Shown here: positions 3,301 through 64,000 of the stretch, in pieces
Layout of the letters: each line of letters starts with the position of its first letter
Numbering within the stretch: position 1 is the first letter of the stretch
IMG/VR virus record: IMGVR_UViG_3300028797_006177
Coordinates: 39,961-103,960 of that record
DNA: 64,000 nt
Strand: one strand, 5' to 3'
Source of the DNA: a virus
Taxonomy: Duplodnaviria > Caudoviricetes
Translations under genes and position numbers: made by a program
The notes under the pieces: generated by a model
Databases searched by the model: none
Told to the model about the DNA's origin: nothing
What the model saw: the letters and a program-made list of their open reading frames with translations, nothing else

Positions 3301-3301
3301 T

Positions 3302-3532
3302 ATGCGGTACATTATTGCAGACAAGGTGAAAGCTGTAGCCTATGGCTTCGAGCTTCACGGACACAGGGTGAATGGAAACCTTATCCTGTTAAACGAGAAA
3401 GAGATGGAATGCAACCCTGCACTTGCTTCTGCTCCGACGCTGGAGAAAAAGTGCGAACTCATCCTGGGTTCCATCTACACACATCAAGATATTATTAACG
3501 AATTAGAACAAGGAGGCTGGAACAATGGCTAA
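3302..3532 (+). CDS. Small hypothetical tail-operon protein
   Basis: 76 aa, abuts or overlaps both neighbours. Confidence 0.6.
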   Translation: MRYIIADKVKAVAYGFELHGHRVNGNLILLNEKEMECNPALASAPTLEKKCELILGSIYTHQDIINELEQGGWNNG

Positions 3533-4589
3533 CAATTATTCTGCACAAGGCAGTATCACCATCAAGAGACTGCGTAACGGGGACTCTCTGTTCCTCACAT
3601 TCAACAACAACGGAATACCGCTTTATCAAGGCGTTGACCCAAATACCGGTGGCGTAACGCCAGACTGGACGGTTGCGGCAAACCAGCCGGAAATCATACC
3701 TGTTGCGAACTCAGTACGCGGTAATGCGGTAACATTGGGCAGTCACCAATGGTATTACAACAACAATTCTGTCCCCCTAACTTTCAACGGAGCGATTTCC
3801 GGTGACTGGCAGGCTGACAGCACAGGTAAGTTTGCCATAAGGATTTCCGGAAGCAACGTAGGTTCACTGAAAATCATCGCAAACCTCGCGTCGATCACAA
3901 ACATTGCAAGTGACAGTCTGACATACAAGGCTGTTGCCAGCGTTGGCGGGGTGGAGTACAATGTAGAGAAGAGCATTGATATTCTCATCCAGTACATCGG
4001 TGCATCATCCTATGTCGGTTTTGTCATGGCAGGCACAGAGCAGCTAACGTCATTAGTAACGAGTTCGACACTCACAACGAAACTTGAATGTTCTGGGAAA
4101 AATGTCACAAACTACTACGTGAAGTGGTACAAAGACACAGTAGAATGGGCTGAAAAGGCAGGTTTGAAGGAAATAACCGTTACTCGCAACGATGTGGACG
4201 GTACTCAGCTATTCATAGCAGAGTTTTACGAGAACTCTGGTGACACAGACTATGTATGCAGGGCCGGAATCAGAATCATTGATACGCTCGATGATTTCAA
4301 AGTTGACTGCTACATTTCAAGCACGAACAAAGAGGTAGATACAGGCTCTCCAGTAACCGTCGGGGCGAGGATAATCAATATGAGAACAGGTGCCGAGGTG
4401 ACTCCAACAAGTCCGATATGGGCGATGTACATTATGAAGAAGTCAGATTGGTCTGTTCTCAAATCTTCAAGTACGAACTCCATACAGGTTACGACTACCG
4501 AAACCGATGCCGGAGGACAGGAAAACGATGTGGAGGTTACAGCGGAAGTCAGCTGGTCTGATAGCTTATCCGACAGTTCGTCTGAGTAA
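3525..4589 (+). CDS. Phage tail structural protein (Ig-like/beta-rich)
   Basis: 354 aa, Thr/Ser/Val-rich, operon context. Confidence 0.55.
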   Translation: MANNYSAQGSITIKRLRNGDSLFLTFNNNGIPLYQGVDPNTGGVTPDWTVAANQPEIIPVANSVRGNAVTLGSHQWYYNNNSVPLTFNGAISGDWQADSTGKFAIRISGSNVGSLKIIANLASITNIASDSLTYKAVASVGGVEYNVEKSIDILIQYIGASSYVGFVMAGTEQLTSLVTSSTLTTKLECSGKNVTNYYVKWYKDTVEWAEKAGLKEITVTRNDVDGTQLFIAEFYENSGDTDYVCRAGIRIIDTLDDFKVDCYISSTNKEVDTGSPVTVGARIINMRTGAEVTPTSPIWAMYIMKKSDWSVLKSSSTNSIQVTTTETDAGGQENDVEVTAEVSWSDSLSDSSSE

Positions 4590-4620
4590 ACAATTATTCA
4601 CTATATTAAACTAACAGAAA

Positions 4621-5904
4621 ATGGCAAAGAAGAATTTGGCAACGGCAACAGCCGTAAATACGATGCAGTTGGGGAACTCTATCATTATAGAGGTAGGTGG
4701 CTCTGTCCGCAGAATTACCCTTGCAAACTTAATTGATGCTATCAATTCCGGCGACACACAGCTTCTTCACTCCGTGGCGTGGGGCGTGCCTCTGAAACAG
4801 AATTTATCAAGTCCCGCCTGGGGACGTGTCGGTAATCTCAACCTGTGGGAGGAGTATAAGGCAAAGAGCGGACGCTATCTCGTGAAGCAAAACGGAACTG
4901 CTGCAAAGCTTTCAACGGAAAACAGCGGCATTTATGCCGATGGAACGCCGCTTGACGAAACGGATGGGAATATTATGGTGGTATTCCCCGATTTGTACTA
5001 CCGTGTAGTGAGTGACCCCGTGACGAATGTGAATTATCTGTGGATGAGCATGATTCCTATTGGAGGTCATGTAATCAAGCATCCCGTAATCGGTGCATAT
5101 AAAGGCACGACAACACTTACGGAACTTGTTTCGCGTTCTGGCGCAGCTCCTGCAGGGTCCAAGACGATATCGCAGTTCTTGCAGTTGGCAAAAATGAACG
5201 GCAGCAACTGGGGGCTTACGAACTACGACCATATCAGGTTTATGATGATGCTTGCCCTCTCCGAGTATGGCTCCCCCAACATTCAAGCCCAACTTGGCTA
5301 CGGACTTTGCGGTAGCACATCCAACGGTGTTGGCTGGACTGAAACGCAATCATTACAGACAGGAGCGACAAAAAGCCTTGGCGATGCCGCAGGGAAAATT
5401 GATGTAAGCGTTTCAGGTGGAACAAATTGCTCCCACGTTAGTCTCTTCGGCATTGAAGACCCCTATGGTTGGCAATGGGAAATGATACAGGGCATCTATT
5501 GCGGCTCTTCCTCGAACAGCGGGCAAACAGGTAGCGAAGTATTCGTTTACGAGGGCAACCGTATGCCTTCGGCAGCAGAACTTGCCAGTCATCCAAGCGG
5601 CGAGTATAGGGAACTTAATCGTCTCACTTCGAGCGGCTATATTAAAACAGAATTGCTCGGCGAATATTTCGACCTGTTCCCTGCATCATTAGACGGCGGC
5701 TCTACGAGCTACTGGTGTGATTACTCCTATGCGTCCACCACTGGACAGTTGGTCCTGTGGGGCGGTGGTGCGAATGACGGCGCGGATTGCGGTCTCGCTT
5801 ACGTGAGCTCGTATCACGCTTTCTCGTTCTCGTATGCGTACTTCGGGGCCCGCCTTGCTTACTATGGTGAATTAACGATTGTGAATGGTGCAGATATCGC
5901 ATAA
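4621..5904 (+). CDS. DGR target protein; putative receptor-binding tail fibre with C-terminal C-type-lectin-fold variable region
   Basis: C-terminus 'LWGGGANDGADCGLAYVSSYHAFSFSYAYFGARL' is encoded by the VR; 'FGIEDPYGWQWE' motif typical of CLec-fold DGR targets. Confidence 0.9.
   Translation: MAKKNLATATAVNTMQLGNSIIIEVGGSVRRITLANLIDAINSGDTQLLHSVAWGVPLKQNLSSPAWGRVGNLNLWEEYKAKSGRYLVKQNGTAAKLSTENSGIYADGTPLDETDGNIMVVFPDLYYRVVSDPVTNVNYLWMSMIPIGGHVIKHPVIGAYKGTTTLTELVSRSGAAPAGSKTISQFLQLAKMNGSNWGLTNYDHIRFMMMLALSEYGSPNIQAQLGYGLCGSTSNGVGWTETQSLQTGATKSLGDAAGKIDVSVSGGTNCSHVSLFGIEDPYGWQWEMIQGIYCGSSSNSGQTGSEVFVYEGNRMPSAAELASHPSGEYRELNRLTSSGYIKTELLGEYFDLFPASLDGGSTSYWCDYSYASTTGQLVLWGGGANDGADCGLAYVSSYHAFSFSYAYFGARLAYYGELTIVNGADIA
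5747..5860 (+). repeat. DGR variable repeat (VR)
   Basis: 114-bp copy of 6103-6216 with 13 mismatches, all opposite TR adenines. Confidence 0.97.
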
Positions 5905-40398: not shown

Positions 40399-40785
40399 TT
40401 AATTTTTCATAATCCCTATCGTCACTGCCTTGTTGCAATGCGGGCAGAGGAAAGCTGCCACTGGCTGCAAGGGCTGCTCATGCTGACCGAACACCAATTC
40501 CTCCAACTTCGACATCTGCTCCTGATGTTCGATTGACGAAGATTCGGCTTCTGTCTGTTCTGCTGGCTGTTCCGCTGGCCGTTGTTGCCCCTTGCCTTCA
40601 TTCTCATACCAGTCGTCGAAGAACTCAGCAGGATGGCAACCAACAATCTTGGCGATGTCTATCATCTTCTTCACATTCGGGTATGCACTGATGGTCGCCG
40701 ACAGCGATCCCTTCGTGATGCCAAGCTCATTGGCCACCTGTTCCAACGTGAAGCCATGCTTCTGTATAACTGCTAATATCTGCAT
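40399..40785 (-). CDS. XRE-family HTH regulator with C-terminal CxxC
   Basis: 'TLEQVANELGITKGSLS'; 'CPHCNK'. Confidence 0.85.
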   Translation of the reverse strand: MQILAVIQKHGFTLEQVANELGITKGSLSATISAYPNVKKMIDIAKIVGCHPAEFFDDWYENEGKGQQRPAEQPAEQTEAESSSIEHQEQMSKLEELVFGQHEQPLQPVAAFLCPHCNKAVTIGIMKN

Positions 40786-41184
40786 GATTTTTATCTTTTC
40801 TTAGTTTTGTTTGAATTTTGCTGCAAATGTATGATGTTTTTACTAAATATCCAAACTTTTAAGCAAGTTTTTATAACTTTTTGGCAACTTTGTTTGATAT
40901 TTTCGCTTTTTCCTGCACTTTCTCGGCAATTTTTAGCCTCTTTTTGCGGCGGAAATCCAAACGGCTTTCTGTCCCCTCGCAAAATGCACTAAATATCAGC
41001 ATTTTAGGCTTTCTGTTCTTTTTGCAGCGGAAATCACGATGCCGAAGGAAAGTTGTAACTCGCTGATTTTTATATCTTCTCATTTCGGCAACCAAACCCG
41101 ATGCCTTTGATTCAAAGAGAAGACCGCCGCCACACTGGGCGCGACCGGCTGCGCCCTGCGGCCCTGAATGCAGGGAATATGCTC

Positions 41185-41615
41185 CGGCCTTGCAGAGCGA
41201 ATGCTCGGAGCACCTTGAAGCCCTTGCAGGTGAAGATGCAGCCTTGAAGCCCTTGAAGCCTTGAAGCCCTTGCAGGTGAAGATGCAGCCTTGAAGCCCTT
41301 GAAGCCTTGAAGCCCTTGCAGGTGAAGATGCAGCCTTGAAGCCCTTGAAGCCTTAAAGCCCTTGCAGATGATGATGCAGCCTTGAAGCCCTGCAAGCAGG
41401 TGAAAGCCCTTGCAGATGATGATGCAGCCTTGAAGCCCTTGAAGCCCTTGAAGCCCTTGCAGGTGAAGATGCAGCCTTGAAGCCCTTGAAGCCCTGCAAA
41501 ACACTATACATTATTATATATATATAAGGCTGCAAGATGAAGCCTTGAAGCCCTGCAAGGTGATGAAGCCTTGCAAGATCTTGAAGCGAATGCAAGATGA
41601 AGCCTTGAAGATGCA
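41185..41615 (+). repeat. Left low-complexity repeat block of the AAA/vWA island
   Basis: Permuted words GAAGCC(C)TT, GCAGGT and GATGCAG; a ~46-bp unit repeated about 3 times. Confidence 0.9.
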
Positions 41616-41716
41616 GAAATAACAATAAAATGCAAGATGAAAAAGCCCTTTTTGCACTAAAATTGAAAGAAAAACACGAAAAAGTTACTTTTGAATGAAA
41701 AAAACTCCTTAAAATG

Positions 41717-41746
41717 TTTGTATATTCATATTATTTTGTAACTTTG
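41717..41746 (+). promoter_or_regulatory. Canonical Bacteroidetes promoter
   Basis: TTTG-N18-TAACTTTG upstream of 41810. Confidence 0.7.
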
Positions 41747-41809
41747 CAAGCGAAAAGTTAACATTTAATTATTAATCAAGGTGAAAGCCTTATCAAAAAA
41801 CAAAGTATT

Positions 41810-43372
41810 ATGAAGCAATTAAAAAGTGAAATTCTTGCTATCAAAGCAAGAGGCACCTATGAAGGCAAACAGTACTCCGTATCTGGTGCAAAGTGTGAAC
41901 TTTATCTTGAAGATGATAATATCTTCTTAATGTCACACAATTCAAAATGGAATAGGCTCGAAGAAGATGAAGCCTTGCAGCCTAAGAAAATGCATTCCTG
42001 GAAAAGTTATGCTTTTATCTGCAAAGCTAAGAAGATGCACGAATCACTTTCAAGTAGTGACATATCATTCTATAATGCAGAAATAAATGCAGCACTTAAT
42101 ATGATTATAGAATCTTTTGATTTATATGAAGTGAAGAAAGATGATGCACCAGTGAAAGATGATGCAGCCTTGCAGCCCTTGAAGAAAGATGAAGATGCAC
42201 CAGTGAAAGATGATGCAGTGCAGCCCTTGAAGAAAGATGAAGATGCACCAGTGAAAGATGATGCAGTGCAGCCCTTGAAGAAAGATGAAGATGCACCAGT
42301 GAAAGATGATGCAGTGCAGCCCTTGAAGAAAGATGATGCAGTGCAGCCCTTGCAGGGCTTGCAAGGTGCAGTTCTTGCAGGTGATAAGATGCAGATGATG
42401 CAGATGATGATGCAGATGATGATGCAGCCTTCAGGAATAAGTGAAGAAGCCTTGCAGATGATTCAAGGATTAAAGAATCAAAATGAACTGCAAGCAAAAG
42501 CCCTTGAAGCATATAAGACAAGATTAGAAGCCCTTGAAAATAAGGCACCTTCAAGGATTATTCACGAATTTCATACAGAAAAAGGTATTAAGAAGATAGA
42601 AGGTGAAATTTACCACAAGAACTTTGATAAGATTATGAAGGTTATAAACTTGAATATACCGGTTTATCTGTTTGGCCCTGCTGGTAGTGGAAAGAATGTA
42701 CTTGCGGAGCAGATAGCAAAAGCCCTTGATATTCCCTTCTATTATTCGAATAGTGTTACACAAGAATTCAAGGTTACCGGACATTCTGACATTAATGGAA
42801 AACTTGTTGAAACAGAATTTTATAAGGCTTTCACTAAGGGAGGCTTATTCATGCTTGACGAAGTAGATTCAAGTGATCCTAATGCTTTGATAGTTCTTAA
42901 TGCTGCACTTGCTAATGGATATTTTGATTTTCCAGTAGTAGGTAAGATGATGATGCATGAAGATTTTAGGTGCATAGCTGCAGGTAACACAAAAGGCACT
43001 GGAGCAACCTTAGAATATTCTTCAAGGTTTATTATAGATGAAGCCACAAGGGATCGCTTTTGCTTCTTTGAAGTAGATTATGATGAAAACATAGAAAAAG
43101 CCATTATAAAAAGGTATGATGCAGATGATGAAATTTTGCCTTTTGTCTATGATATTCGCAAAAGTGCAAAGAAGAATCAAGTACATGTTTTGTCCGGTAA
43201 CAGATTAATCAAGAATCTTGCAAGGCTTACAAAAGCAGGATTATCAATTAAAGATGCAGTGTTAAGTGCTTTCTTTGATAAGTACAACAAAGATGATTTA
43301 AGAATCCTTGCAGGTGACATGCTTACATATAATAATAAATATACTGAAGCCTTGAAGATGCTTGCAGCATAG
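41810..43372 (+). CDS. AAA+ ATPase (MoxR/CbbQ/CobS-like) with repeat-containing N-terminus
   Basis: Walker A 'GPAGSGKN', Walker B 'FMLDEVD', 'IAAGNT' and 'DEATRDRF'. Confidence 0.9.
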   Translation: MKQLKSEILAIKARGTYEGKQYSVSGAKCELYLEDDNIFLMSHNSKWNRLEEDEALQPKKMHSWKSYAFICKAKKMHESLSSSDISFYNAEINAALNMIIESFDLYEVKKDDAPVKDDAALQPLKKDEDAPVKDDAVQPLKKDEDAPVKDDAVQPLKKDEDAPVKDDAVQPLKKDDAVQPLQGLQGAVLAGDKMQMMQMMMQMMMQPSGISEEALQMIQGLKNQNELQAKALEAYKTRLEALENKAPSRIIHEFHTEKGIKKIEGEIYHKNFDKIMKVINLNIPVYLFGPAGSGKNVLAEQIAKALDIPFYYSNSVTQEFKVTGHSDINGKLVETEFYKAFTKGGLFMLDEVDSSDPNALIVLNAALANGYFDFPVVGKMMMHEDFRCIAAGNTKGTGATLEYSSRFIIDEATRDRFCFFEVDYDENIEKAIIKRYDADDEILPFVYDIRKSAKKNQVHVLSGNRLIKNLARLTKAGLSIKDAVLSAFFDKYNKDDLRILAGDMLTYNNKYTEALKMLAA

Positions 43373-43467
43373 AAGCAGATGAAGCCTTGAAGCCCTGCAA
43401 AGGGCTTTCAAGGGCTTCAAAGATAGAAGATACAAGAATATAAGGTAACACTAAAAACAAAGCGAAA

Positions 43468-44313
43468 ATGAAGCACATTTTAAATATATATAATAGCTTG
43501 CACGAGCTTTCTTCATACCTTGCACAAGAAGGCACAAGTACACTTTTTGAATTTAGAAAGAATCATCTTTCAAGTGAAGCAGAAGGTGATAAGGCTTTCA
43601 AGTTCACGAGCACTAAATCATATAAAGATGCAGATGATTTAATGAAATTCGGTGACAAGAAGAATGCAAAGAAGCTAAATGCAGCCTTGAAGATTAATGC
43701 ACCTGCATTCGGTATGATGAATAAGAAAAAAGCATTTAACTCTGTTTGGGGATTTATTCCTAATGTAGGTGCAGCCCTTGCAGGTGATCCATTAAATATG
43801 ATTATGATGCAGAATATACCAGCACAAAAGAAAGTTATAACTATCATTTATGATAAATCTGTAGATCACACTATCAAGACAAGTGAAATTATAGAAGCAA
43901 GTGCAAGATTAATTAATGCTATCATAGCACTTGAAAATGCAGGTAAGCGAGTAAATCTGTTTATCTTAGGAGGATTCGCTAATAAATATAGTGTGAATGC
44001 AGATGAAAGCATGATAGCACTTACAAAGATTAAAGATTCTGGTAGTTTATTCGAAAAGGAAAAACTTGCATATTCCCTGCTTAATCCTTCATTCCATAGA
44101 AGGCACATGTTTAAGTGCTTAGAAAAGCAAGAAGGCTTAACACTTAGTGCTTTTCACGAGCATTATGGATATCCTCCTCATAAAGGGCTTACAGAAAAAG
44201 TGCTTAAAGAAAAAAGATTTAATTATGATGCACTTTTCACTTTCTATGATATTCGTGACAAGCAAGATGAAGATATTAAGAAGATGATAGAAGCAAGGAA
44301 AAGTGCAGCATGA
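43468..44313 (+). CDS. vWA-like partner of the AAA+ ATPase
   Basis: 'ITIIYDKSV' degenerate MIDAS strand, 'LENAGKRVNL' and 'PSFHRR'; adjacent to a MoxR-like ATPase. Confidence 0.65.
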   Translation: MKHILNIYNSLHELSSYLAQEGTSTLFEFRKNHLSSEAEGDKAFKFTSTKSYKDADDLMKFGDKKNAKKLNAALKINAPAFGMMNKKKAFNSVWGFIPNVGAALAGDPLNMIMMQNIPAQKKVITIIYDKSVDHTIKTSEIIEASARLINAIIALENAGKRVNLFILGGFANKYSVNADESMIALTKIKDSGSLFEKEKLAYSLLNPSFHRRHMFKCLEKQEGLTLSAFHEHYGYPPHKGLTEKVLKEKRFNYDALFTFYDIRDKQDEDIKKMIEARKSAA

Positions 44314-44314
44314 A

Positions 44315-44770
44315 AGCAGATGAAGCCTTGAAGCCCTGCAAAGGGCTTTCAAGGCTTCAAAAGATGCAGGTGACAAGATGCACCAGTGAAGCAAGCAAAA
44401 GCCCTTGAAGGGCTTAAAAAGGCTTTCTTGAAGCCCTTGCAAGATGAAGCCTTGAAGATGCTCGGAGCATTCCTGCATGATGCAGCCTTGAAGCCCTGCA
44501 AGCAGGTGAAAGCCCTTGCAGGTGATGATGAAGCCTTGAAGCCCTGCAAGCAGGTGAAAGCCCTTGCAGATGATGATGCAGCCTTGAAGCCCTTGAAGAT
44601 GCTCGGAGCATTCATTCAAGATGAAGCCTTGAAGATGATGAAGCCTTGAAGATGATGAAGCCTTGAAGATGATGAAGCCTTGAAGATGATGAAGCCTTGA
44701 AGATGATGAAGCCTTGAAGATGATGAAGCCTTGAAGATGATGAAGCCTTGAAGATGATGAAGCCTTGAAG
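44315..44770 (+). repeat. Right repeat block; includes GATGAAGCCTTGAAGAT (17 bp) as 8 full copies plus 1 partial at 44620-44770
   Basis: Counted directly. Confidence 0.95.
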
Positions 44771-44884
44771 CCCTTATATTATATATTATATGTATGTTAT
44801 AGATGTTATAGAAAATTAGAAAAATTAGAAAATTATATATATTATAGAACCGCTGAGAAATCAGCATTAAAAAAATTAAGTATT

Positions 44885-45103
44885 ATGAACACAAAAATTT
44901 ATCTTCTGAGTTTTACGTTTGGACTCAACGCGACAACGACAACGATTTACACGAGCGACCCGCTCGGCACAGTCATGCAACTTGCAGCAAAGGGGCACCA
45001 ACTTGAGCACGTGACATATAAGGCCGTGCCTGAAAGCGAAACGGCTGCAGCTGCGGAGCAGATGAAAGCGGAGCAGGAGTGGAAATTTATGGAATGGAGC
45101 TGA
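44885..45103 (+). CDS. Small early-region hypothetical protein
   Basis: ATG 44885 after an A-rich leader. Confidence 0.6.
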   Translation: MNTKIYLLSFTFGLNATTTTIYTSDPLGTVMQLAAKGHQLEHVTYKAVPESETAAAAEQMKAEQEWKFMEWS

Positions 45104-45240
45104 ATAAGTTAAGAGTTAAGAGTTAAGAATTATATATTATAGGACCGCTGAGAAATCACAGATTTTTGAATTTATAAATTTTGAATTTTGAATTATAATT
45201 TTTAATCCGTCCTTTATAGGACATCAAAAAAATTACAGAT

Positions 45241-45801
45241 ATGGCAACAATTAAGATGAACGCCACAAAAGGCGCAAACGAGAACGGAAACGGCATGAGC
45301 CAAAGTTTTGTAAATCCTTTCAACAACAACGACCCCGAGCGGTATTGGGAGAGCCGCGACTATGCTATGAACATCGCGGCCACGGCCCTGCGGCAAATCT
45401 TCGGCAGCTTGGCGGAGGACTTCGGCAAGGAGCATTGGGTTGGAGTCATCAGTTCCTGGGGCTGCGTGACGATTGAGGGCAAGATTGTTCACCGAGTGCT
45501 CCGCTGGCGCGAGATGCCCGCCATCGCGCTGCGTGTGCATGGCTACGAGCATGACGGGTGGGTGATTGTCAGCCTGAACGAAGGGGCGGACGTGTACGAG
45601 GTGGAATTGGCGGACGAGCAATTTTTCGCCATTGAAGGCAGCCGCCACGAGGAGGTATATTGCGACATGCTTGGCTCGCTTATAGACCGCCTCGTGGAAA
45701 CGGGCGACAAGACAAAAGCGGAGTATGACGCTCAAATCAAAGCATCATATCCGGCTGAATGCTTTGCGAAGGAGCACGGAGTGCAGGTGGTCTATTTATA
45801 G
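45241..45801 (+). CDS. Early-region hypothetical protein
   Basis: 186 aa. Confidence 0.75.
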   Translation: MATIKMNATKGANENGNGMSQSFVNPFNNNDPERYWESRDYAMNIAATALRQIFGSLAEDFGKEHWVGVISSWGCVTIEGKIVHRVLRWREMPAIALRVHGYEHDGWVIVSLNEGADVYEVELADEQFFAIEGSRHEEVYCDMLGSLIDRLVETGDKTKAEYDAQIKASYPAECFAKEHGVQVVYL

Positions 45802-45863
45802 GCCGCCTGCGAAATTAGGCTTTTTCAATCTTTTAATTTTTCAATTTTTCAACTTTTATTGTC

Positions 45864-46604
45864 ATGGATAAGTTATTAAATTACATTGTTGGCCGTATGA
45901 ACGGCGCGAAGTATGGGGCGCCGGAGTTTTATTGGTGGGTGAGCGAGAACCTTCCGAAGGCGGACGCGGAGCCTATCTTGGACGCAATCGACTCGGCTTG
46001 TGAGGCAAACGTGAAACGCGCCATATCGGACTACTTTACTCGGCATCAGCTTTATCCCCTTGCGCTGCACTATGTGGCTGCAGCAAGCTGGCTGAATGAT
46101 GACCCCGAACAGAGTAACCCTCTTACCTACGGGACCTATGTGACGATGCACAGCACGGAGCACGCACTTGACACGCAGGAGGACGAGTACGAGATTGAGG
46201 CGACATATCAGGCGGACGCGAGGCTCACACTGCGCAGGCAGGTCATTGGGGCGTATCTGCAAGCCTTGAGGCACGGCCATAAGCCTTGGCGGGGTATCGT
46301 TATAGAGCTTCCGCGAAATCGGTTTAATGTGGAGTGTGTTTCGCTTCGCTGCTTGAAGGCGGACAGAGACCGCGTGCAGGGTGCTTTTATGGCGCAACAC
46401 GAAAAGAACCGGCACCTACCGCCCGAAGAACAAAAGGAGGCGACAATCCGCGATGTGCATTTTAACGTGCATGTGACAATCAGGACGGGCAAAGGCATTA
46501 GCGGTTTCGCAGTGGAGCGCGTGGTGACGCTGCATGTGAAGCATCAGCACGTATCGGCCCATCCGAGGGAGTGGTACTTGAAAAATAAAAAAATGAAGAA
46601 TTAA
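45864..46604 (+). CDS. Early-region hypothetical protein
   Basis: 246 aa. Confidence 0.7.
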   Translation: MDKLLNYIVGRMNGAKYGAPEFYWWVSENLPKADAEPILDAIDSACEANVKRAISDYFTRHQLYPLALHYVAAASWLNDDPEQSNPLTYGTYVTMHSTEHALDTQEDEYEIEATYQADARLTLRRQVIGAYLQALRHGHKPWRGIVIELPRNRFNVECVSLRCLKADRDRVQGAFMAQHEKNRHLPPEEQKEATIRDVHFNVHVTIRTGKGISGFAVERVVTLHVKHQHVSAHPREWYLKNKKMKN

Positions 46605-46682
46605 GAATGAAGAATTAAGAATTATATATTATAGAAAGGCTGCGAAATTAGAGTTTTTCTTTTCATAATACTTTGTTAAATA

Positions 46683-46718
46683 GAAAAGGGCTGCGTCGTG
46701 ATGACGCGGCCCTTTTCG
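46683..46718. terminator. Bidirectional intrinsic terminator
   Basis: GAAAAGGGCTGCGTC...GACGCGGCCCTTTTC. Confidence 0.75.
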
Positions 46719-46804
46719 CTTTTGCTCGCTGAAAGCTGCTCGCCACAACAGCCGTTTTATAGGGCGTGTGGGAAATTAGTCGTTATTATAGGCGGTGTGA
46801 AAAA

Positions 46805-47302
46805 TTAGTCGTTTACAAGCCTGTAGCGGCGCGTTTCGCCTTTCAGCGGGTCAATGGTCAGCAGGTCGTAATCAAGGCCGCTGGCGGGCTTCTGTGGGGC
46901 TTGTGGGGCTTCTTCGCTTTCTTTGCTCGCGATGGAATCACTCGCCACACTACCGGCGGCGGGTGCCTGCGGTTCTGGCGGCAACTGTCCGGCGGCGCGG
47001 AGGTCGGCGATGACTTCGGCGGGAGTGTTGAGCAACATCCAGGCGGGGACATCCAGGGCGGCGGCGATGCGGTCAATGGTGGAGAGCGTTGGGTTCTTCT
47101 GTCCTTTCAGGAAGCCGGTGACGTTACTGGGGTTCAGGTCAAGGGCGGTGGCGAGCTGCGTGGGCGACATGGAGCGCAAGGCCATAAGGTCTTTTAGCAG
47201 TGCGGTAAGTTTCGCGGGTCGGTCCTGCGGGGTGTCGGGTGCCGCTTGGCTTGCTTCTTGCAGGATCAATTCTTCTTGCAGGGCGATTTCTTCTTCTGTC
47301 AT
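46805..47302 (-). CDS. XRE-family HTH regulator
   Basis: 'SPTQLATALDLNPSNVTGFLKGQKNPTLSTIDRIAAALDV'. Confidence 0.88.
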   Translation of the reverse strand: MTEEEIALQEELILQEASQAAPDTPQDRPAKLTALLKDLMALRSMSPTQLATALDLNPSNVTGFLKGQKNPTLSTIDRIAAALDVPAWMLLNTPAEVIADLRAAGQLPPEPQAPAAGSVASDSIASKESEEAPQAPQKPASGLDYDLLTIDPLKGETRRYRLVND

Positions 47303-47536
47303 GGTTTTGCGTGTTTATGTTTTATTATTCTACATTTATATTATAATATACTTAAATCGGGTGCAAAATACGGGCTTTTTCAATTAAAAACAAAGAAAAA
47401 CGCATTAATTTTGCTTTTTATTGAAAATAATTGCAAGAATGTTTGGCGGTTTCAACATTTTGTTGTAACTTTGCAGCAGATTTAATAACAATTAAATGTT
47501 TAACCGCCGAGAAATCGGCAATAAAAAATTAAAGTT

Positions 47537-47722
47537 ATGGCACAGACAATGACCTATGCTGCAAGAAAGGAAGCAGCACGTGAGCAAGCAATCGACTGGC
47601 AGGATTGGCTCAGCGAAAACAATGTTTCCTACGAAGGGCTCGCAATCGCAACTAACTATTTTGAAAAACTCGGCAGGCGCTACGGACTCATCCGCGAATT
47701 TCGTGAGAACGCAATTATATAG
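47537..47722 (+). CDS. Small hypothetical protein
   Basis: 61 aa after canonical promoter TTTG-N20-TAACTTTG (47442-47473). Confidence 0.7.
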   Translation: MAQTMTYAARKEAAREQAIDWQDWLSENNVSYEGLAIATNYFEKLGRRYGLIREFRENAII

Positions 47723-47800
47723 GGCGAATTATTATCTACTATACATTATAATATATTATTATAGAACCGCTGAGAAATTAGCATTAAAACATTTACGACT

Positions 47801-48145
47801 ATGGCAAACAAGAGACAAAAGGAGTGGGCGTATTTTGATACGAGCTTCGACAAGGAACCATGTTTTGAATTGATGATGAAGTACGGCGACGCGAAGGCGT
47901 GTTGTCATCCAGGTCCCTGCGACTACGACTGCGAGGGAGTGATGCAACTGCCATACATGCGCAAGCAGCTCGACCAACTGACCGACAAGCAGATTGAGGT
48001 AGCTGTCCGTGAGTATGGAGTGGAATTTGAAGAGTACGAAGGGCGCGAAGTGCCGCGCAACATCTTGGAGCTTTATCTGGTCTGGCTGGCTGCGGGCGAC
48101 ATCGTTGATGAAGTCTATGAACGCGAAAACCGCAAAGCTGCATAA
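47801..48145 (+). CDS. Early-region hypothetical protein
   Basis: 114 aa. Confidence 0.7.
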   Translation: MANKRQKEWAYFDTSFDKEPCFELMMKYGDAKACCHPGPCDYDCEGVMQLPYMRKQLDQLTDKQIEVAVREYGVEFEEYEGREVPRNILELYLVWLAAGDIVDEVYERENRKAA

Positions 48146-58654: not shown

Positions 58655-59518
58655 ATGAAAAAGTTCATTTTTCTTTCAATGATTACGGCTCTGGTTTCCT
58701 GTCAGCAGATTGATTTCGACGACATCAAGGCGGACGATGGAAGCGATGCCAATGTGGTGCTAACGTTCTCGACATACGGTCAGCAGGAGTTTACTCGTGC
58801 GGCTGCACCCTTGACGGACCAGTGCTCGCGTCTATCGGTAGCGGTGTTCGACGAGGACGATGCAAAGGTTGGTTCTACGAAGAGCCAGAAGGTAGGCGAC
58901 ACGAACTTTGGTACCATCGGGCTGTCGTTGCAGGACGGCACTTATACCATCGTGGCGATTGCTCACAACGGCGAGGGGAACTGCACGATTACTTCTCCAA
59001 GCAAGGTGACGTTTCCGAGCAATAAGATGACCGACACGTTCTGCTACTGCGGCGAGCTGGTGGTGGATGGCAGTGTTAGCGAGACGCTGGAAATGAAGCG
59101 TGTGGTGGCGATGATGCGCCTAACGATTACCGATGCTATTCCTGAAGGCGTGGCAAGGTTGAAGTTCTATTATACAGGCGGCAGTTCAACACTGAATCCT
59201 CGCACGGGTTTCGGTTGCGTGAACTCGAAGCAGACGGAGTATCGCAGCGTGATAGACGACAACGGTATGCCTGTCAGTGTCTATGAGATTTACACAGCTC
59301 CGCATGAGCAGAACGATATTCTGAAACTGACCATCACTTCGCAGGATGCCAGCAACGGCGACATTGACGTGTTCGAGCCGATGGAGAACATTCCCGTGAC
59401 GGTCAATAAGATTACGACTTGGGAAGGTGCGCTCTTCGGCGGCAGTTCGTCATCAGGAGGCAATATCGGCATTACGCTTGATACGGCCTGGGGCGGCTTT
59501 ATTAACTACACTTGGTAA
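58655..59518 (+). CDS. FimB/Mfa2-like type V pilin lipoprotein (paralog)
   Basis: Lipobox 'LVSC', 'FTRA', 'MKRVVAMM', C-terminal 'LDTAWGG..Y.W'. Confidence 0.75.
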   Translation: MKKFIFLSMITALVSCQQIDFDDIKADDGSDANVVLTFSTYGQQEFTRAAAPLTDQCSRLSVAVFDEDDAKVGSTKSQKVGDTNFGTIGLSLQDGTYTIVAIAHNGEGNCTITSPSKVTFPSNKMTDTFCYCGELVVDGSVSETLEMKRVVAMMRLTITDAIPEGVARLKFYYTGGSSTLNPRTGFGCVNSKQTEYRSVIDDNGMPVSVYEIYTAPHEQNDILKLTITSQDASNGDIDVFEPMENIPVTVNKITTWEGALFGGSSSSGGNIGITLDTAWGGFINYTW

Positions 59519-59585
59519 CTCTCTTTATAGGACGGTGGGGCGACCACCCTGCCGTCCTTTTCAATAAATCAAGAAAGCAAGAATT

Positions 59586-60395
59586 ATGGAAAACAATAAA
59601 ACAAGATTGAAAGAAGTGTTGGCTGTGGTCAACAACAAGGGCGGGGTAGGGAAGACTACCACCGTACAGAGTTTGGCGGCGGCGATGGTGCGCGAGCATC
59701 CTGAATGGCGGGTGCTGGTGATTGACATGGACCCACAAGGAAATCTGTCGCAGCTGATGGGCTGGAACGGCGAGAGGATGCCGACGGTGACGGACGCACT
59801 ATCATCAGAGCAGGGACTGTTGCCTATCTACAAGAACAACCGGGGCATATACTACGTTCCGTCGTCGCCTGCGCTGCAGAAGATTGAGCCGAAGATGATG
59901 GCGCAGATGCAGCCGTATATGGTGCTCCGCAAGTTGTTTATAGGCAAGGTGGAGGATTACAGCGACGAAGGCATCAGCACCATCCCTTATTATTTCGACT
60001 ATGTGCTGATTGACTGCCCTCCTGCACTAAGCATGTGTACCTACAATGCTATGGCGGTGGCAAGTGGTTTACTGATACCAGTTCAGATGGAAGGGCTATC
60101 GGTGTCAGGATTGGCACCAATTATCGTGGAAATGGAGCGAGTTAAGCGAGAACTAAACTCAGGATTGGAACTGCGAGGCATCCTGCCCGTGATGGTTGAC
60201 ATGCGTCCGAACATCGTGCGGTCTTTTGTGGACTATCTGAAAGGGGCGTATGGCGACAATGTGACATCGACCATTATCCCGCGTTCTGTAAAGGTCAACG
60301 AGGCACAGACGAAGAAGCAGAACATCTACGAGTATAAGCAGTGGTCGCCTGTGGCCAATGCGTATGAAAAATTAGTTAAAGAACTATTCGGGTGA
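59586..60395 (+). CDS. parA: ParA/Soj partition ATPase
   Basis: 'NNKGGVGKTT', 'IDMDPQGNL' and 'IDCPP'. Confidence 0.95.
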   Translation: MENNKTRLKEVLAVVNNKGGVGKTTTVQSLAAAMVREHPEWRVLVIDMDPQGNLSQLMGWNGERMPTVTDALSSEQGLLPIYKNNRGIYYVPSSPALQKIEPKMMAQMQPYMVLRKLFIGKVEDYSDEGISTIPYYFDYVLIDCPPALSMCTYNAMAVASGLLIPVQMEGLSVSGLAPIIVEMERVKRELNSGLELRGILPVMVDMRPNIVRSFVDYLKGAYGDNVTSTIIPRSVKVNEAQTKKQNIYEYKQWSPVANAYEKLVKELFG

Positions 60396-60468
60396 AGAAA
60401 ATTGCCAAATGGCTAAATAGTACATAAATTGTAAATTGTAAATCGTCAAATCGTAAATGAATAGGGTT

Positions 60469-60786
60469 ATGGGAAAGAACAACTGGAACCTGCAGGACAT
60501 GCAGGAAACCTTAGTCAAGGACACGGAGCAGCGCATTGAGCAGGGCTTCGAGAGTATTAAGAATGAAAATGGCGGCAGCTTCGTGGTGAAGCCTGCAACC
60601 GAGGCACCTGTGCCGCCAATGAAGGACGAGCAGCAGGCCGAGCCTACCAAGGGTGTGCAGACGTACATACCTATGTCGATGTACCGCCGCTTGAATGACA
60701 TCAAACTGACCAGGGGAGAGACTATAGCAAACCTTGTGGCAGAAGCGGTGGCGCTGTGGCTGGATGTTCAAGAGGGCAAATTATAG
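60469..60786 (+). CDS. Putative ribbon-helix-helix partition partner (ParG-like)
   Basis: Small gene after parA; disordered N-terminus and 'GVQTYIPMSMYRRL' strand-helix-helix. Confidence 0.6.
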   Translation: MGKNNWNLQDMQETLVKDTEQRIEQGFESIKNENGGSFVVKPATEAPVPPMKDEQQAEPTKGVQTYIPMSMYRRLNDIKLTRGETIANLVAEAVALWLDVQEGKL

Positions 60787-60794
60787 TCACAACT

Positions 60795-61256
60795 ATGACC
60801 AGAATCAATAGTGCTATTCATGTGCGATGCCTGACGGACGAGCATCTGCTGGCTGAACATCGAGAGATTAAGCGACTTCCGTTCTGTCTGCGCGAGGCTA
60901 TCAGGACTGGAAGCATTAAGCATATTCCTGAGAAGTTCGTGCTGGGAAAAGGGCATGTAAAGTTCTTCCTGGATAAACAGCAATTTGTCTATAACAGATA
61001 CATCGACATTCATTGCGCTGTCAGAGGCAGAGGGTTCAACGTGCAGTCGTATATTGATAATTGGAGTACACATTGCGTCAAGGACTACTGGAACGACTAT
61101 ACCCCAACATACGAGGAACGACAGTTACTCATTGATCGCATCACCGACCGCATCATGCACAGCAAGAAGCAAACGTGGCACTACTACGGCCAGGCCATAT
61201 CAAAAGAAGCCGCAGTGCGTCTGCTGATGGGCAACGAAGTGTCCGAAACTATATAA
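60795..61256 (+). CDS. denV: Pyrimidine-dimer DNA glycosylase (T4 endonuclease V-like)
   Basis: 'MTRIN...LTDEHLLAEHREIKRL...LGKGHVKFF'. Confidence 0.92.
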   Translation: MTRINSAIHVRCLTDEHLLAEHREIKRLPFCLREAIRTGSIKHIPEKFVLGKGHVKFFLDKQQFVYNRYIDIHCAVRGRGFNVQSYIDNWSTHCVKDYWNDYTPTYEERQLLIDRITDRIMHSKKQTWHYYGQAISKEAAVRLLMGNEVSETI

Positions 61257-61336
61257 ATGGACACCTTAGTGCAAACTATAATATCCGACACCACAAACTA
61301 TATAAGAAGGTGAATACAACTATATATTTGGACACC
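61246..61336 (+). repeat. Iteron-like repeats; candidate replication origin
   Basis: AACTATA-N6-(G/C)GACACC-type units at 61246, 61273, 61295 (partial) and 61317, the last three 22 bp apart; AT-rich tract follows. Confidence 0.65.
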
Positions 61337-61512
61337 TTATTTATATACTATATATAGAAATACTCTTTATAAATGATGGAGAAAAGGGTAGCGTTCAGTA
61401 TAGTACGGAATGCGAAAACTGCGATAAACAAAGGGTTTGCGGTGTGTCAAGGTGAACAATGTTATAGTAGAATCGTGCATTTTGCACAACATAATTGAAG
61501 ATTTCAATAGTT

Positions 61513-62772
61513 ATGGAAGAGAATAAACAGCAGTTGATGGAGTGCGCACGGCAGGAGATGTGGATCAAGACGCCGTTCTCGTACATCAAGCTCGGACCGA
61601 AACTGACGCTGTTCCAGCAGGACACGATGCTGATGGTCAGCGACCACCTGCAGCAGTATGTGAAGAACTTCTTCGACCTGAATCTGAACAACACAGAGGC
61701 GAAGCCGAGGGCACTCTTCACTAAGTACCTGCTGGAGCATGGCATCCCGCCGTTCCGCATCAACCTGGCCGACATGGACATTGACCCCGCCAACTACAAG
61801 GTGGTGCGCAAGGCCATTGAGGAAATGAACTTGCTGGTGGAGCATCAGGAGTTCGACGAGAACGGAAAGCCGACGGGACATACTATTTTCTCGCCTGTGT
61901 TCACGAAGTTCCGCGTGCCGAGGACGGGCGACTACTACCGCAAGCGCGACGAGCAGGGCGAGATTATCGTGGAGTCTGCGAGGCATAGCGGTTACATTGA
62001 GGTGGAGATTAACAAGGATGTGGCACAGTATGCCTTCGACATGAGCCAGGGCTACGCCAATCACCCGAAACTGATTGCACGCTATGCCACGAAGCGTAGC
62101 ACGCCACGGCTCTACTTCAAGCTGCAGGAGTTGATGGGTAGGGAGCGGCACACCCGCGTCCGTCTGACGGTGCAGGAGATTAAGAACTTTCTCGGCTTCG
62201 AGACATTCAAGGATGATGCAACGGGCGAGTGGGTGGTGCCGTATCAGAAGTTCGCCCATTTCAAGACAAAGGTGCTGGATGCTGTGAAGGCCGACCTCGA
62301 CCAGATGGCACGTGACAACCATACAGACATCACGTTTAGCTACGAGCCTGTCTATCTGAACGGACGCAGGCGCGGCGACCCTGACTATATCGAGTTCACG
62401 GTTATGAGTACCAACCTTGGACTTGGATATTCCTTACTAACCAAGAAAGACACACCTGCAACAGGACAAGCAAAGGACTTGGTAAAGCAGGCAAGCCTTC
62501 GCATCGAGCAAATCAAGGAGCAATGGGAACAATGTAGGGCCGATATGCTCAGTCATTGCACAAGGGAGAATAGCTTCCGCGTCATAACATCACTCTCCTT
62601 TGAATCTTGGACGGAAGACACGAAGACGCTCATGCTGAGACTGGAAAAATACGACGACTATTCGTGGATTATGCAGCCGCATGTGTCGGGCGACTTGGTG
62701 AAGCCTGCGATGCTGAAACATTTCGGCACAGGTGTGAGCTGGATGTATAGTGTGCCACCACCTGCTATTTAG
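61513..62772 (+). CDS. Plasmid-type replication initiator (Rep_3/RepB-like)
   Basis: 'TPRLYFKL...LTVQEIKNFLG...YQKFAHFKTKVLD' winged-helix pattern; iterons upstream. Confidence 0.8.
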   Translation: MEENKQQLMECARQEMWIKTPFSYIKLGPKLTLFQQDTMLMVSDHLQQYVKNFFDLNLNNTEAKPRALFTKYLLEHGIPPFRINLADMDIDPANYKVVRKAIEEMNLLVEHQEFDENGKPTGHTIFSPVFTKFRVPRTGDYYRKRDEQGEIIVESARHSGYIEVEINKDVAQYAFDMSQGYANHPKLIARYATKRSTPRLYFKLQELMGRERHTRVRLTVQEIKNFLGFETFKDDATGEWVVPYQKFAHFKTKVLDAVKADLDQMARDNHTDITFSYEPVYLNGRRRGDPDYIEFTVMSTNLGLGYSLLTKKDTPATGQAKDLVKQASLRIEQIKEQWEQCRADMLSHCTRENSFRVITSLSFESWTEDTKTLMLRLEKYDDYSWIMQPHVSGDLVKPAMLKHFGTGVSWMYSVPPPAI

Positions 62773-63961
62773 CATTCTTCTTTTTAGCCCCAAACACTTT
62801 ATTGAGCAGCTTGAAGTTGTTGTCGTTGATGATGGTGAAATCCTTGGCAATGTATATGTCGGCTATGTCGTATGTTCCGACGTGGTTCAGGGCTTCGTCA
62901 ACATCACTCTTTGAGAAGTGCATCATGTTACGGGAAAGCGTGGCAAAGGTATGACGCGCCTGGTAGAACTGGAGGTTGTCGATGCCGAGTTCCTCGCCAA
63001 CATCTTTCAGACCGATATTGATGGCACGATTGAAGTCGGAAGCGGACGAATATCGCTTGCTAAACGAGAACACCTTGCCGCTGCCTTTGTATCGCCTCAT
63101 TAGATCGGCAATAACGGGATGAACTTTTACTTCGATATAAGCATTGTCGCTACGCCTGTCCTGTGTCTTTGCCCTGTTGTATTTTATCGTGTCGTTCCTG
63201 ATTTCTTTGGCTTCGTACATATCAACGGAGTTCATACCCATCAGACAAAAGGACAGGATAAAACAATCCCTTGCGAGTTGAGCGCGACTACCTGGCCTAC
63301 CTTTATAATTATATATAGTAAGTAGTTGCTCCAGAGTCAATGCGCGGACACCCTTCTTTATTTGCTGCTTCGGTACGCGGTACCGCAGAAACGGGTCGTT
63401 GGCTATGACAGTCTCATAGTCTGTGTTGTACCTGCGCATCGCCTCATGGTACAGATGCCGGATAAATCCAAGATACATCGACTGCGCTCGTGGTCTGTCT
63501 TGCAGGTGCCTGTCGTAGTCTTCCAGAAGTTTGTATGTGATGCTCTTGAACGGCAGCATCCTCTTCCCAACAAACCCCTCCAATGAGTTAAGCATCGTCT
63601 TGTAGTTCTTTACGCCCTTGATGCTTGTCTTGTCAATCCATTCGTCTGCAAAGGCGAAGAAGTCCAGTTCGTCTTTCTTCGCTACGATCCTGCTGACAAT
63701 TTCGCCAGCATCCATTGTCGCACGGCCAAGGTAATCTAATTGCAGCGCGTCGAGCCTTTCTTGAAGCTCTCGTCGCTTGTTATCTATCATCTTTGCCTTC
63801 TCCGGCTCCCTTATGCGCTTCCCGTTGGTCGTCAGTTCTGAATCCGAGACGGACACTCCAGTCGGGATGCGCTTCTTATGTAACCCCTGACATAACAAGA
63901 ACGACACGGGATGCACGCGCTTCTTATTCTTTTTCCCTATTTCAATCGTTATTGTAGCCAT
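62765..63961 (-). CDS. int: Tyrosine integrase
   Basis: 'YNRAKT', 'FYQARHTFAT', 'ALNH' and 'IADIY'; N-terminal arm-binding and SAM-like domains; start ATG 63961. Confidence 0.92.
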   Translation of the reverse strand: MATITIEIGKKNKKRVHPVSFLLCQGLHKKRIPTGVSVSDSELTTNGKRIREPEKAKMIDNKRRELQERLDALQLDYLGRATMDAGEIVSRIVAKKDELDFFAFADEWIDKTSIKGVKNYKTMLNSLEGFVGKRMLPFKSITYKLLEDYDRHLQDRPRAQSMYLGFIRHLYHEAMRRYNTDYETVIANDPFLRYRVPKQQIKKGVRALTLEQLLTIYNYKGRPGSRAQLARDCFILSFCLMGMNSVDMYEAKEIRNDTIKYNRAKTQDRRSDNAYIEVKVHPVIADLMRRYKGSGKVFSFSKRYSSASDFNRAINIGLKDVGEELGIDNLQFYQARHTFATLSRNMMHFSKSDVDEALNHVGTYDIADIYIAKDFTIINDNNFKLLNKVFGAKKKNAK

Positions 63962-64000
63962 ACTTGCTTCTGTTTTGACGGAAAACTGACGGAAATACAT

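Follow-up and report, generated by a model that had tools for sequence, protein, structure and literature searches.

The locus described here lies in a window of 64,000 nucleotides, corresponding to bases 39961-103960 of the single 103,960-bp virus record IMGVR_UViG_3300028797_006177 (Caudoviricetes), a phage present in bovine gut metagenomes. The window contains a two-gene cassette encoding an AAA_5 ATPase and a DUF7192 protein (Table 1), which is bordered and penetrated by DNA composed of a few short words: an array upstream from the ATPase gene, a tract within the part of this gene encoding a linker, and an array downstream from the DUF7192 gene. The resulting island (41185-44772) is the lowest-complexity DNA of the entire genome (104 kb), and a 300-bp complexity scan placed the genome-wide minimum (0.26, versus a median of 0.94) in the left array. 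Such tracts are a conserved property of this locus in related phages, and their DNA words come before the protein sequence that they encode.

Table 1. Features of the ATPase/DUF7192 cassette and of its low-vocabulary tracts (positions counted from the first base of the window; repeat units with copy numbers to one decimal place are from Tandem Repeats Finder).
Feature	Position	Strand	Details
Conserved left boundary of the cassette	41094-41137	+	AAACCCGATGCC (41094-41105), CGCCGCCACACTG (41125-41137)
Left low-vocabulary array	41185-41625	+	46-bp unit x6 (46 bp x 6.0, 41213-41493); near-palindrome TGCTCGGAGC (41202-41211)
Left array, further parts	AT block 41500-41527; short second array to 41620	+	Sequence
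Promoter-like signal of host (Bacteroidota) type, 5' of the ATPase gene	41717-41746	+	TTTG, 18 nt, TAACTTTG
AAA_5 (MoxR/CobS-like) ATPase, 520 amino acids	41810-43372	+	Pfam AAA_5, phrog_249
Intragenic low-vocabulary tract (ATPase linker)	42132-42430	+	48-bp repeats (48 bp x 4.3, 42132-42336, KKDEDAPVKDDAVQPL) and ATG/CAG run
Terminator-like hairpin after the ATPase gene	43380-43419	+	Word GAAGCCCT and its complement; fold z -4.1, 0/200 shuffles as good
DUF7192 protein, 281 amino acids, weakly vWA-like	43468-44313	+	Pfam DUF7192, 102.5 bits; phrog_1909
Second copy of the hairpin, after the DUF7192 gene	44321-44359	+	Fold z -4.9 to -6.3
Right low-vocabulary array	44360-44772	+	48 bp x 2.4 (44477-44593); perfect 17 bp x 8.9 (44620-44770); near-palindromes at 44459 and 44600
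AT-rich block TATATTATATGTATGTTATAG... and first phage promoter cassette	44773-44860	+	Conserved right end of the cassette

A preliminary description of this stretch had reported an AT-rich island written in a restricted vocabulary, and counting bore this out. The words listed there (GAAGCC, CTTGAAG, GATGCAG, TTGCAAG, GAAGAT and others) occurred 36-113 times per kb in the four 1-kb bins of the island and no more than 13 times per kb in each of the other 100 bins of the genome, and the GC content was 0.34-0.43 over 41-45 kb, versus about 0.50 elsewhere. As had also been reported, the words lay almost wholly on the plus strand (GAAGCC plus/minus counts of 20/0 and 18/1 in the flank bins), and CCTTGAAG was present in 74 copies, versus none of its reverse complement, in eight arrays from four loci. 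The 48-bp repeats described within the ATPase coding sequence were recovered (Table 1), and MQMMQMMMQMMMQP was found in the translation. The scarcity of CG and of GAG/CTC, initially judged by eye, was equally clear: the observed/expected ratio of CpG was 0.23 in the island and 1.08 in the rest of the genome, and GAG and CTC were 4-5 times rarer in the island (3.6 versus 16.6 and 2.5 versus 12.3 per kb, respectively). The ratios for AC, GT and GG were about 0.5, and that for the GC dinucleotide was 1.93. The island contained 1161 distinct 6-mers, whereas Markov simulations of order 0, 1 and 2 (base, dinucleotide and trinucleotide composition) predicted 2120, 1703 and 1385, giving z values of -28, -15 and -6, respectively; the bias is not, therefore, explained by composition alone. 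The structured coding parts taken separately were also poor in 6-mers (z values of -11, -8 and -4.8, versus -6.6, -4.1 and -0.9 for control genes). The island is cryptically simple DNA, in that its short motifs are reshuffled beyond what base, dinucleotide and trinucleotide composition would produce.

Seven relatives from seven samples (L002-L007 and L010; ENA and Logan assemblies), with proteins 63-78% identical to those of the window locus (W), are here called AT-type. All seven had low-vocabulary DNA on both sides of the gene pair and in the ATPase linker, always on the same strand, with a similar vocabulary (GATGCACCCTTGAAG, GAAGCCCTGCAAG, GATGATGCA...) and a different word order; the 46-, 48- and 17-bp units of the window were not found in the same form in any of them. 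In three samples (L004, L005 and L006), one array was identical over 679/679 bases. L010 displayed 87-92% identity to the window in unique flanking DNA, with arrays that were rearranged and shorter, and homology resumed at 44664, inside the right array. Contig G001 (IMG/VR, 92.3 kb; locus L011) has downstream genes with 88-93% DNA identity to positions 45202-47997 of the window and carries, in the place of the island, a GC-rich gene for an ATPase (37% amino-acid identity) and one for a DUF7192 protein (33%). The array following these genes has a wholly different vocabulary (CAGATGACCGCC, CAGGAACAGG...), which recurs in the linker of the ATPase of this contig. This contig ends inside the ATPase linker on one side and directly after its own copy of the left-boundary motif AAACCCGATGCC on the other; its assembly therefore broke on the tracts. 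Four further loci of this GC type (L018-L021) possessed both flank arrays and the linker tract, and contig L019 stops about 20 bases before its own copy of CGCCGCCACACTG.

A complexity scan detected the three tracts (upstream, linker and downstream) in 13/13 loci of both cassette types, from at least 11 independent assemblies of different samples and by different pipelines. The property is conserved and the arrangement is not, the arrays being rearranged even in the closest relative, L010. The same scan found flank tracts at 0/22 loci with more distant homologues, two of which (L030 and L032) had a mildly simple linker. A DUF7192-like gene lay directly after the ATPase gene at 21/21 distant loci, comprising Kayvirus, two metagenome loci and 18 contigs from metagenome-assembled genomes labelled Treponema, Clostridia, Bacilli, Bacteroidales, Alistipes and Thiomicrorhabdus. 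In this phage lineage, arrays and cassette are therefore coupled, but this is not a trait of the gene family in general. The coupling of motif array and ATPase pair put forward in the preliminary description holds within the lineage, across two vocabularies, but does not extend to the distant pairs, which have ordinary flanks. No relative was found by scanning IMG/VR with the ATPase, and scans of IMG/VR and JGI metagenomes with the neighbour genes yielded contig G001 only. An exact-pattern scan with CCGCCGCCACACTG was unspecific, with 117 loci recovered and no homologue of the window among them. Unitigs, and several of the long contigs, are interrupted at the arrays, the Logan contigs did not bridge them and showed no joint across the cassette, and the locus was not encountered as an empty site or an excised circle.

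Several short elements are common to the two cassette types. The boundary motif CGCCGCCACACTG was present in AT-type and GC-type loci (W, L002, L003, L019 and L021), both types have the same kind of AT block closing the two arrays, and a palindrome of 12-13 bp, ATGCTCG(G)AGCAT, occurred solely within arrays (window 41202, 44459 and 44600; L002-L004, L019 and L021), with GTGCTCGAGC as its GC-type form. This palindrome is the sole CG/GAG/CTC-containing word tolerated in the AT-type arrays and is a candidate operator. Individual relatives had features of their own. In L003, an IS605-family TnpB (694 amino acids; OrfB_IS605, Cas12f1-like TNB) is inserted at 2628-4712, left of the left array and separated from it by a few hundred bases. 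Some relatives (L004:4947-5090, L007:478-618) have, between the ATPase gene and the promoter region, a conserved open reading frame (ORF) of 46-47 codons (MKQ..YYL..LFECMILFFTLIN.GARN...) that carries a leader-sequence copy of its own and is absent from the window. The GC-type ATPase gene of L018 (4487-5892) is split into ORFs of 309 and 154 amino acids, corresponding to a frameshifted allele or an assembly error. L004 has unrelated simple repeats nearby (1850-2000 and 2590-2900), namely an array of the heptamer ACTATGA and direct repeats each about 100 bp long, and this phage group is generally repeat-prone.

The linker codons of the AT type are the words themselves: GAT GAT GCA CCC TTG AAG encodes DDAPLK, and a one-base shift of the same words gives a Met/Gln run (ATG ATG CAG). 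Across six ATPase genes, GATGCAG gives D-A at 27 sites and M-Q at 37, and the entire linkers of L007 and L010 are Q/M-rich, corresponding to the other frame of the same words. Likewise, CAGGAACAG of the GC type is read as QEQ in L019 and L011 and as TGT(D) in L021. The use of the same words in two frames implies that the DNA repeats come first and the protein sequence second. Between 12 and 40% of linker 10-mers recurred in the flank arrays within a cassette type, versus 0% across types, and, in the AAA domain and DUF7192, array 7-mers exceeded their frequency in synonymous-codon shuffles by a factor of 2.1-2.3 (z values of 6.4 and 6.0; controls 0.8-3.0). Synonymous-site conservation inside the words was modest in the ATPase gene (0.83 versus 0.61) and absent from the DUF7192 gene, and the intragenic tract kept the reading frame open in 12 aligned full-length homologues. 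These observations support a DNA-level process, rather than protein coding, as the force shaping the island. To this extent, the preliminary description was right to couple such a force to the ATPase pair, but neither of the two specific mechanisms that it proposed, considered below, was supported.

The arrays themselves were rejected as genes: stops are present in the plus frames, and the array ORFs, including one of 87 amino acids at 44386-44649, are not conserved; those on the minus strand are open only because TA and TC are missing. Recoding of TGA or TAG is unneeded, as the long genes are open under table 11. The left array folded no better than shuffled sequences (z of +1.6), and neither did the arrays of the window and the GC type when considered as structured RNA or single-stranded DNA (z of +1.7 to -0.9), with somewhat better folding for the upstream array of L002 (z of -3.0 and -2.0). 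An Rfam search of the arrays gave nothing near gathering score. The clearly structured DNA of the cassette consists solely of the two hairpin copies following the genes (z of -4 to -6).

We investigated the history of the ATPase gene by comparing its N-terminal domain with its AAA module, and both the identity matrices and the maximum-likelihood trees disagreed between these two parts. In the N-domain tree, the window sequence grouped with P0002-5 (84-86% identity; support 100/99), whereas it grouped with P0006/7 in the AAA-module tree (86-87% identity; support 89/93). P0009 displayed the reciprocal pattern (support 93/97 and 100/99). For the triplet of the window, L002 and L004, informative sites switched from 92:21 to 157:249, with a maximum chi-square breakpoint at 42319-42374, inside the linker tract (chi-square of 64.7, reached in 0/500 permutations, the best of which gave 23.0). 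As judged from these alignments, the crossovers lie in the linker tract. Exchange evidently also involves the entire unit: the downstream neighbour proteins of W, L010 and L011 were 91-94% identical, for cassettes that were only 51-74% (L010) and 33-37% (L011) identical, a pattern demonstrating, at the level of sequence comparison, the replacement of whole cassettes between near-identical backbones.

The ATPase consists of a beta-rich N-domain (residues 1-105), the low-complexity linker, a coiled stretch and the AAA module (residues 235-520). Its earlier identification as a MoxR-type AAA+ ATPase was upheld by the matches to Pfam AAA_5 (50.8 bits, cut-off 22; residues 285-417) and to the 'CobS-like' phage family phrog_249 (E 9.8e-56), and by Walker A (GPAGSGK) and Walker B (FMLDE) motifs with residues invariant or nearly so across 12 homologues. 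The C-terminal 290 residues share 44% identity with the AAA ATPase encoded by Staphylococcus Kayvirus phages. CobS proper (TIGR01650) was not matched by the window ATPase at E <= 0.01, and the GC-type ATPase scored 15.1 bits against this model (cut-off 558.55); no chelatase genes (CobN/CobT context) lie near the cassette. The model of the N-domain (pLDDT 81) had no recognisable fold, with a best Z of 3.8 in the fold search, and no usable match was obtained for this domain in the ESM Atlas.

The DUF7192 protein is 30% identical to the product of the Kayvirus neighbour gene, also 281 amino acids long. The best match of its model (pLDDT 81.5) was the vWA domain of NorD bound to NorQ (Z 6.9 and 6.4; root-mean-square deviation 4.9 for 176 aligned residues; Foldseek E 1.7e-3), a weak match with a Z below 8; Z was 5.8 for Rea1 MIDAS, and all the top structure matches were vWA/MIDAS domains. 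However, the MIDAS motif DxSxS is not conserved: the window has D129-K-S-V-D133 and the family N-x-S-V-x, with only V132 of this stretch invariant or nearly so in 16 sequences. The label of vWA partner given initially is weakly supported. In PADLOC, the ATPases gave only short P-loop matches centred on Walker A (E of 1e-5 or weaker) and DUF7192 had no match; no paper mentioning DUF7192 was found in the literature, and nothing on function for phage CobS/CobT. At a guess, the AAA+/vWA-like pair might be a remodelling chaperone in phage-host or phage-phage conflict. The known consensus of Bacteroidota promoters is TTTG/TAnnTTTG, and we infer from the match to this consensus that the signal upstream from the ATPase gene is probably a promoter; its TTTTGTAACTTTGC is conserved in AT-type and GC-type loci.

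A tyrosine integrase is encoded at the right end of the record (62765-64000, minus strand), and the element is read, because of this gene, as a temperate phage or integrase-bearing prophage. No terminal repeats were found in the record, and the genome contains one tRNA gene (tRNA-Pro), with none in the window. The island is adjoined by a divergent helix-turn-helix (HTH) gene (40399-40785, minus strand) on one side and by an array of small early genes on the other, with a second HTH repressor-like gene at 46805-47302. A local minimum of the cumulative GC skew lies at the left edge of the island, where it coincides with a switch in gene orientation. CTAG is absent from all 103,960 bases, and GATC, with 67 copies genome-wide, is strongly avoided outside the island (observed/expected of 0.18) and 2.2 times denser within it (1.39 versus 0.62 per kb); the island looks like a less ameliorated import, not a purged leader.

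Several other features of the genome were recorded. A 74-codon gene (MNTKIYLLSF...; 44880-45103), present in the window and L010 and absent from G001, is bracketed by two copies of TATATTATAG(A/G)ACCGCTGAGAAATCA, indicating insertion or deletion at promoter-cassette junctions. The second lowest-complexity spot of the genome (56340-56700) has CAATCAACATTTCAA-like words around the start of a small gene and is unrelated to the island vocabulary. The region close to the integrase (58655-64000) encodes an Mfa2-like fimbrial anchor protein (58655-59518), a ParA-like ATPase (59586-60395), a pyrimidine-dimer glycosylase-like protein (60756-61256) and a protein with a Rep3_C initiator domain (61495-62772), with a 22-nt direct repeat pair at 61247 and 61318; it could be a plasmid-like module for maintenance, or else the border of a further element. 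Genome positions 14.5-35 kb (L023 and L024) carry RNA ligase-like, radical-SAM, PAPS-reductase-domain and DUF3310 genes, together with genes for an N6/N4 DNA methylase and a DnaN-like beta clamp; this set may serve DNA modification and replication.

The explanation that we favour, at roughly even confidence, is that the tracts are cryptically simple DNA, made by slippage and evolving in concert, that serves as the recombination joints of a hypervariable cassette. Slippage and template switching would create and reshuffle short direct repeats wherever these are tolerated, that is, in the two flanks and the disordered linker, and gene conversion would keep the three tracts of one cassette type alike. 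Common words in the same orientation at the same three places would then provide homology between diverged alleles, allowing them to recombine in register: an exchange in the linker would swap the N-terminal domain against the AAA module in frame, and an exchange at or beyond the flank arrays would replace the whole promoter-ATPase-DUF7192 cassette. Slippage or template switching is probably the generating process, and the ease of shuffling at a locus engaged in an arms race probably maintains the tracts. Slippage and unequal exchange make direct repeats only, so the orientation of the words on one strand needs no selection. The proposed account would also explain the rapid rearrangement of the arrays, the use of words in two frames, a vocabulary that follows the allele rather than the host, the assembly breaks and the mapped linker crossover. 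No competing signal was detected, the arrays being non-coding and unstructured, with no Rfam family and no polar word common to the two types.

Several observations weigh against this explanation. The clear cases amount to two domain swaps and one whole-cassette replacement only, and mosaic patches are also found within structured coding sequence, so the breakpoints are not confined to the tracts. Homology between the window and L011 resumes on the right only at about 45202, past an extra small gene, the left junction of this replacement is missing from the G001 assembly, and its junctions are not mapped to the arrays. The crossovers may map to the linker partly because this is the best-conserved DNA (up to 100% identity). 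The array copy numbers in the window rest on short-read assemblies. Finally, the persistence of non-coding arrays of 0.4-0.7 kb across alleles with 37% amino-acid identity suggests some selected role, and the palindrome, the AT blocks and the left boundary motif, which look like protein sites, are left unexplained by recombination joints.

Such sites are the basis of an alternative that we consider unlikely, in which the arrays are cis-acting binding sites (origin iterons, centromere-like sites or operators) bound by the cassette proteins, such as the ATPase through its N-domain, or by the neighbouring HTH regulator. The arrays adjoin AT-rich blocks and lie upstream of promoters, with the divergent HTH gene next to them, the array-only palindrome recurs in both cassette types, and the vocabulary changes with the cassette allele, as iterons do with their initiator; the cumulative GC-skew minimum at the left edge would also fit. 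However, this minimum coincides with the orientation switch, the arrays lack a constant unit or spacing and are arranged differently in close relatives, and one vocabulary is found across three types of N-domain only 49-61% identical, a domain with no recognised DNA-binding fold in its model. The element also encodes, 15-20 kb away, a Rep3_C-containing protein and a ParA-like protein of its own, and the same gene pair lies in ordinary DNA at 22 other loci, including the strictly lytic Kayvirus. It is likewise doubtful that the tracts are a neutral by-product, arising by runaway slippage in the unconstrained DNA of a recently acquired cassette of odd composition, with incidental recombination. 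The perfect 17-bp and 48-bp repeats do imply very recent expansion, the arrays are neither structured nor coding, and a few distant homologues (L030 and L032) have low-complexity linkers alone. Nevertheless, phage genomes are compact, and three tracts persist at the same places in types diverged to 33-37% amino-acid identity; the array words are enriched in constrained coding sequence too, and crossovers do fall in the tract.

The preliminary description had proposed a restriction-purged leading region expressing an anti-defence remodeller, or polar binding or decoy sites for a translocase or nuclease. We judge both very unlikely, taking the first as a region that enters early and the second as Chi-like or decoy sites for a host enzyme. 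The bias of the words to one strand, the absence of CpG and of several CG-containing palindromes, and allelic replacement at a hot spot, typical of conflict genes, would be in keeping with them, and clustered polar Chi sites exist in some lambdoid phages (PMC12315714). However, the densities of GATC and the genome-wide absence of CTAG indicate that any purge is carried by the backbone and not by the island, the GC-type arrays are CG-rich, and no word of at least 6 bases is both abundant and polar in the two vocabularies (13 AT-type and 6 GC-type arrays), even though the allelic cassettes lie in backbones about 90% identical and therefore probably share a host. The proteins belong to no PADLOC family beyond generic P-loop matches, and an integrase-bearing prophage gives no sign of this region entering first. 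An artefact of short-read metagenome assembly, to which the dependence on such assemblies and their breaks at the arrays could point, is extremely improbable, given the presence of the three-tract architecture in at least 11 assemblies from different samples and pipelines, the array identical in three of them and the frame kept open in the homologues. We also consider it quite improbable that the arrays are the cis-acting substrate of the AAA+/vWA-like pair, making the cassette a self-diversifying or self-mobilising module acting through its variable N-domain. If this were the case, the ATPase would target proteins of recombination or replication at the tracts of its own cassette, both flanking and intragenic, and the cassette and its repeats would together form a system linked to recombination or replication that has not been described before, and not a passive hot spot.

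Repeat-mediated modular exchange is a known kind of process; the unusual element here is an intragenic, in-frame joint sharing the vocabulary of the flanks. Cryptic simplicity was reportedly described by Tautz, Trick and Dover in 1986 as scrambled short-motif DNA made by slippage. The island resembles it in its permutations of few words beyond composition, direct orientation, fast turnover and spill-over into tolerant coding regions, but the tracts lie at three fixed places around one phage cassette, are tied to mapped crossovers and are conserved as a property across two unrelated vocabularies. The ATPase/DUF7192 pair is like NorQ/NorD and CobS/CobT in that an AAA_5 ATPase is followed by a partner best matching NorD vWA/Rea1 MIDAS, and like the Kayvirus pair in gene order and identity (44% and 30%). 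It differs from MoxR/vWA systems in its unconserved MIDAS, its additional beta-rich N-domain and repeat linker, and the lack of a chelatase/NOR context. The lambda ori lies inside the linker of gene O, and P4 has ori/crr. The island is similar to both in having repeats in the linker-coding part of an ATPase or initiator gene, allele co-variation, a second repeat cluster some kb away and AT-rich blocks, but it has no fixed iteron or spacing and no recognised DNA-binding domain, and the pair is array-free in other phages.

In the promoter/stem-loop (PeSL) cassettes of T4-type phages, recombination between junction repeats shuffles, replaces and deletes genes (Arbiol et al. 2010, PMC2839356). As in the island, short repeated non-coding elements lie at the gene junctions of a hyperplastic region. 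However, PeSLs are discrete promoter and terminator units, whereas the joints of the island are arrays of 0.3-0.7 kb with no fixed or promoter-like unit, and one of these joints is intragenic, allowing in-frame domain swapping; the stem-loop part of the PeSL is resembled solely by the two hairpins following the genes. The Sp185/333 immune genes of sea urchins are flanked by short tandem repeats and have internal repeats, which have been suggested to serve as platforms on which recombination, conversion, duplication and deletion take place (Oren et al. 2016, PMC5103432). These genes also diversify rapidly, with surrounding and internal repeats and broken short-read assemblies, but they are eukaryotic and multi-copy, with pure GA/GAT microsatellites, whereas the island is a single-copy phage cassette with complex word arrays.

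If tracts of this type do act as joints, then a hypervariable cassette would carry its own portable homology, in the form of fast-evolving flank arrays and an array in a disordered linker. The mosaicism of phages is generally attributed to rare events of illegitimate exchange or to homology within conserved genes. The low-complexity linker of a protein can, furthermore, be dictated by the dynamics of DNA repeats, with the same words read in two frames. Should the finding be general, loci of uncultured phages that are under diversifying selection would be marked out by tracts of this kind, which would also explain recurrent assembly breaks and provide a handle on the role of the widespread phage AAA_5/DUF7192 pair, including that of Staphylococcus Kayvirus.

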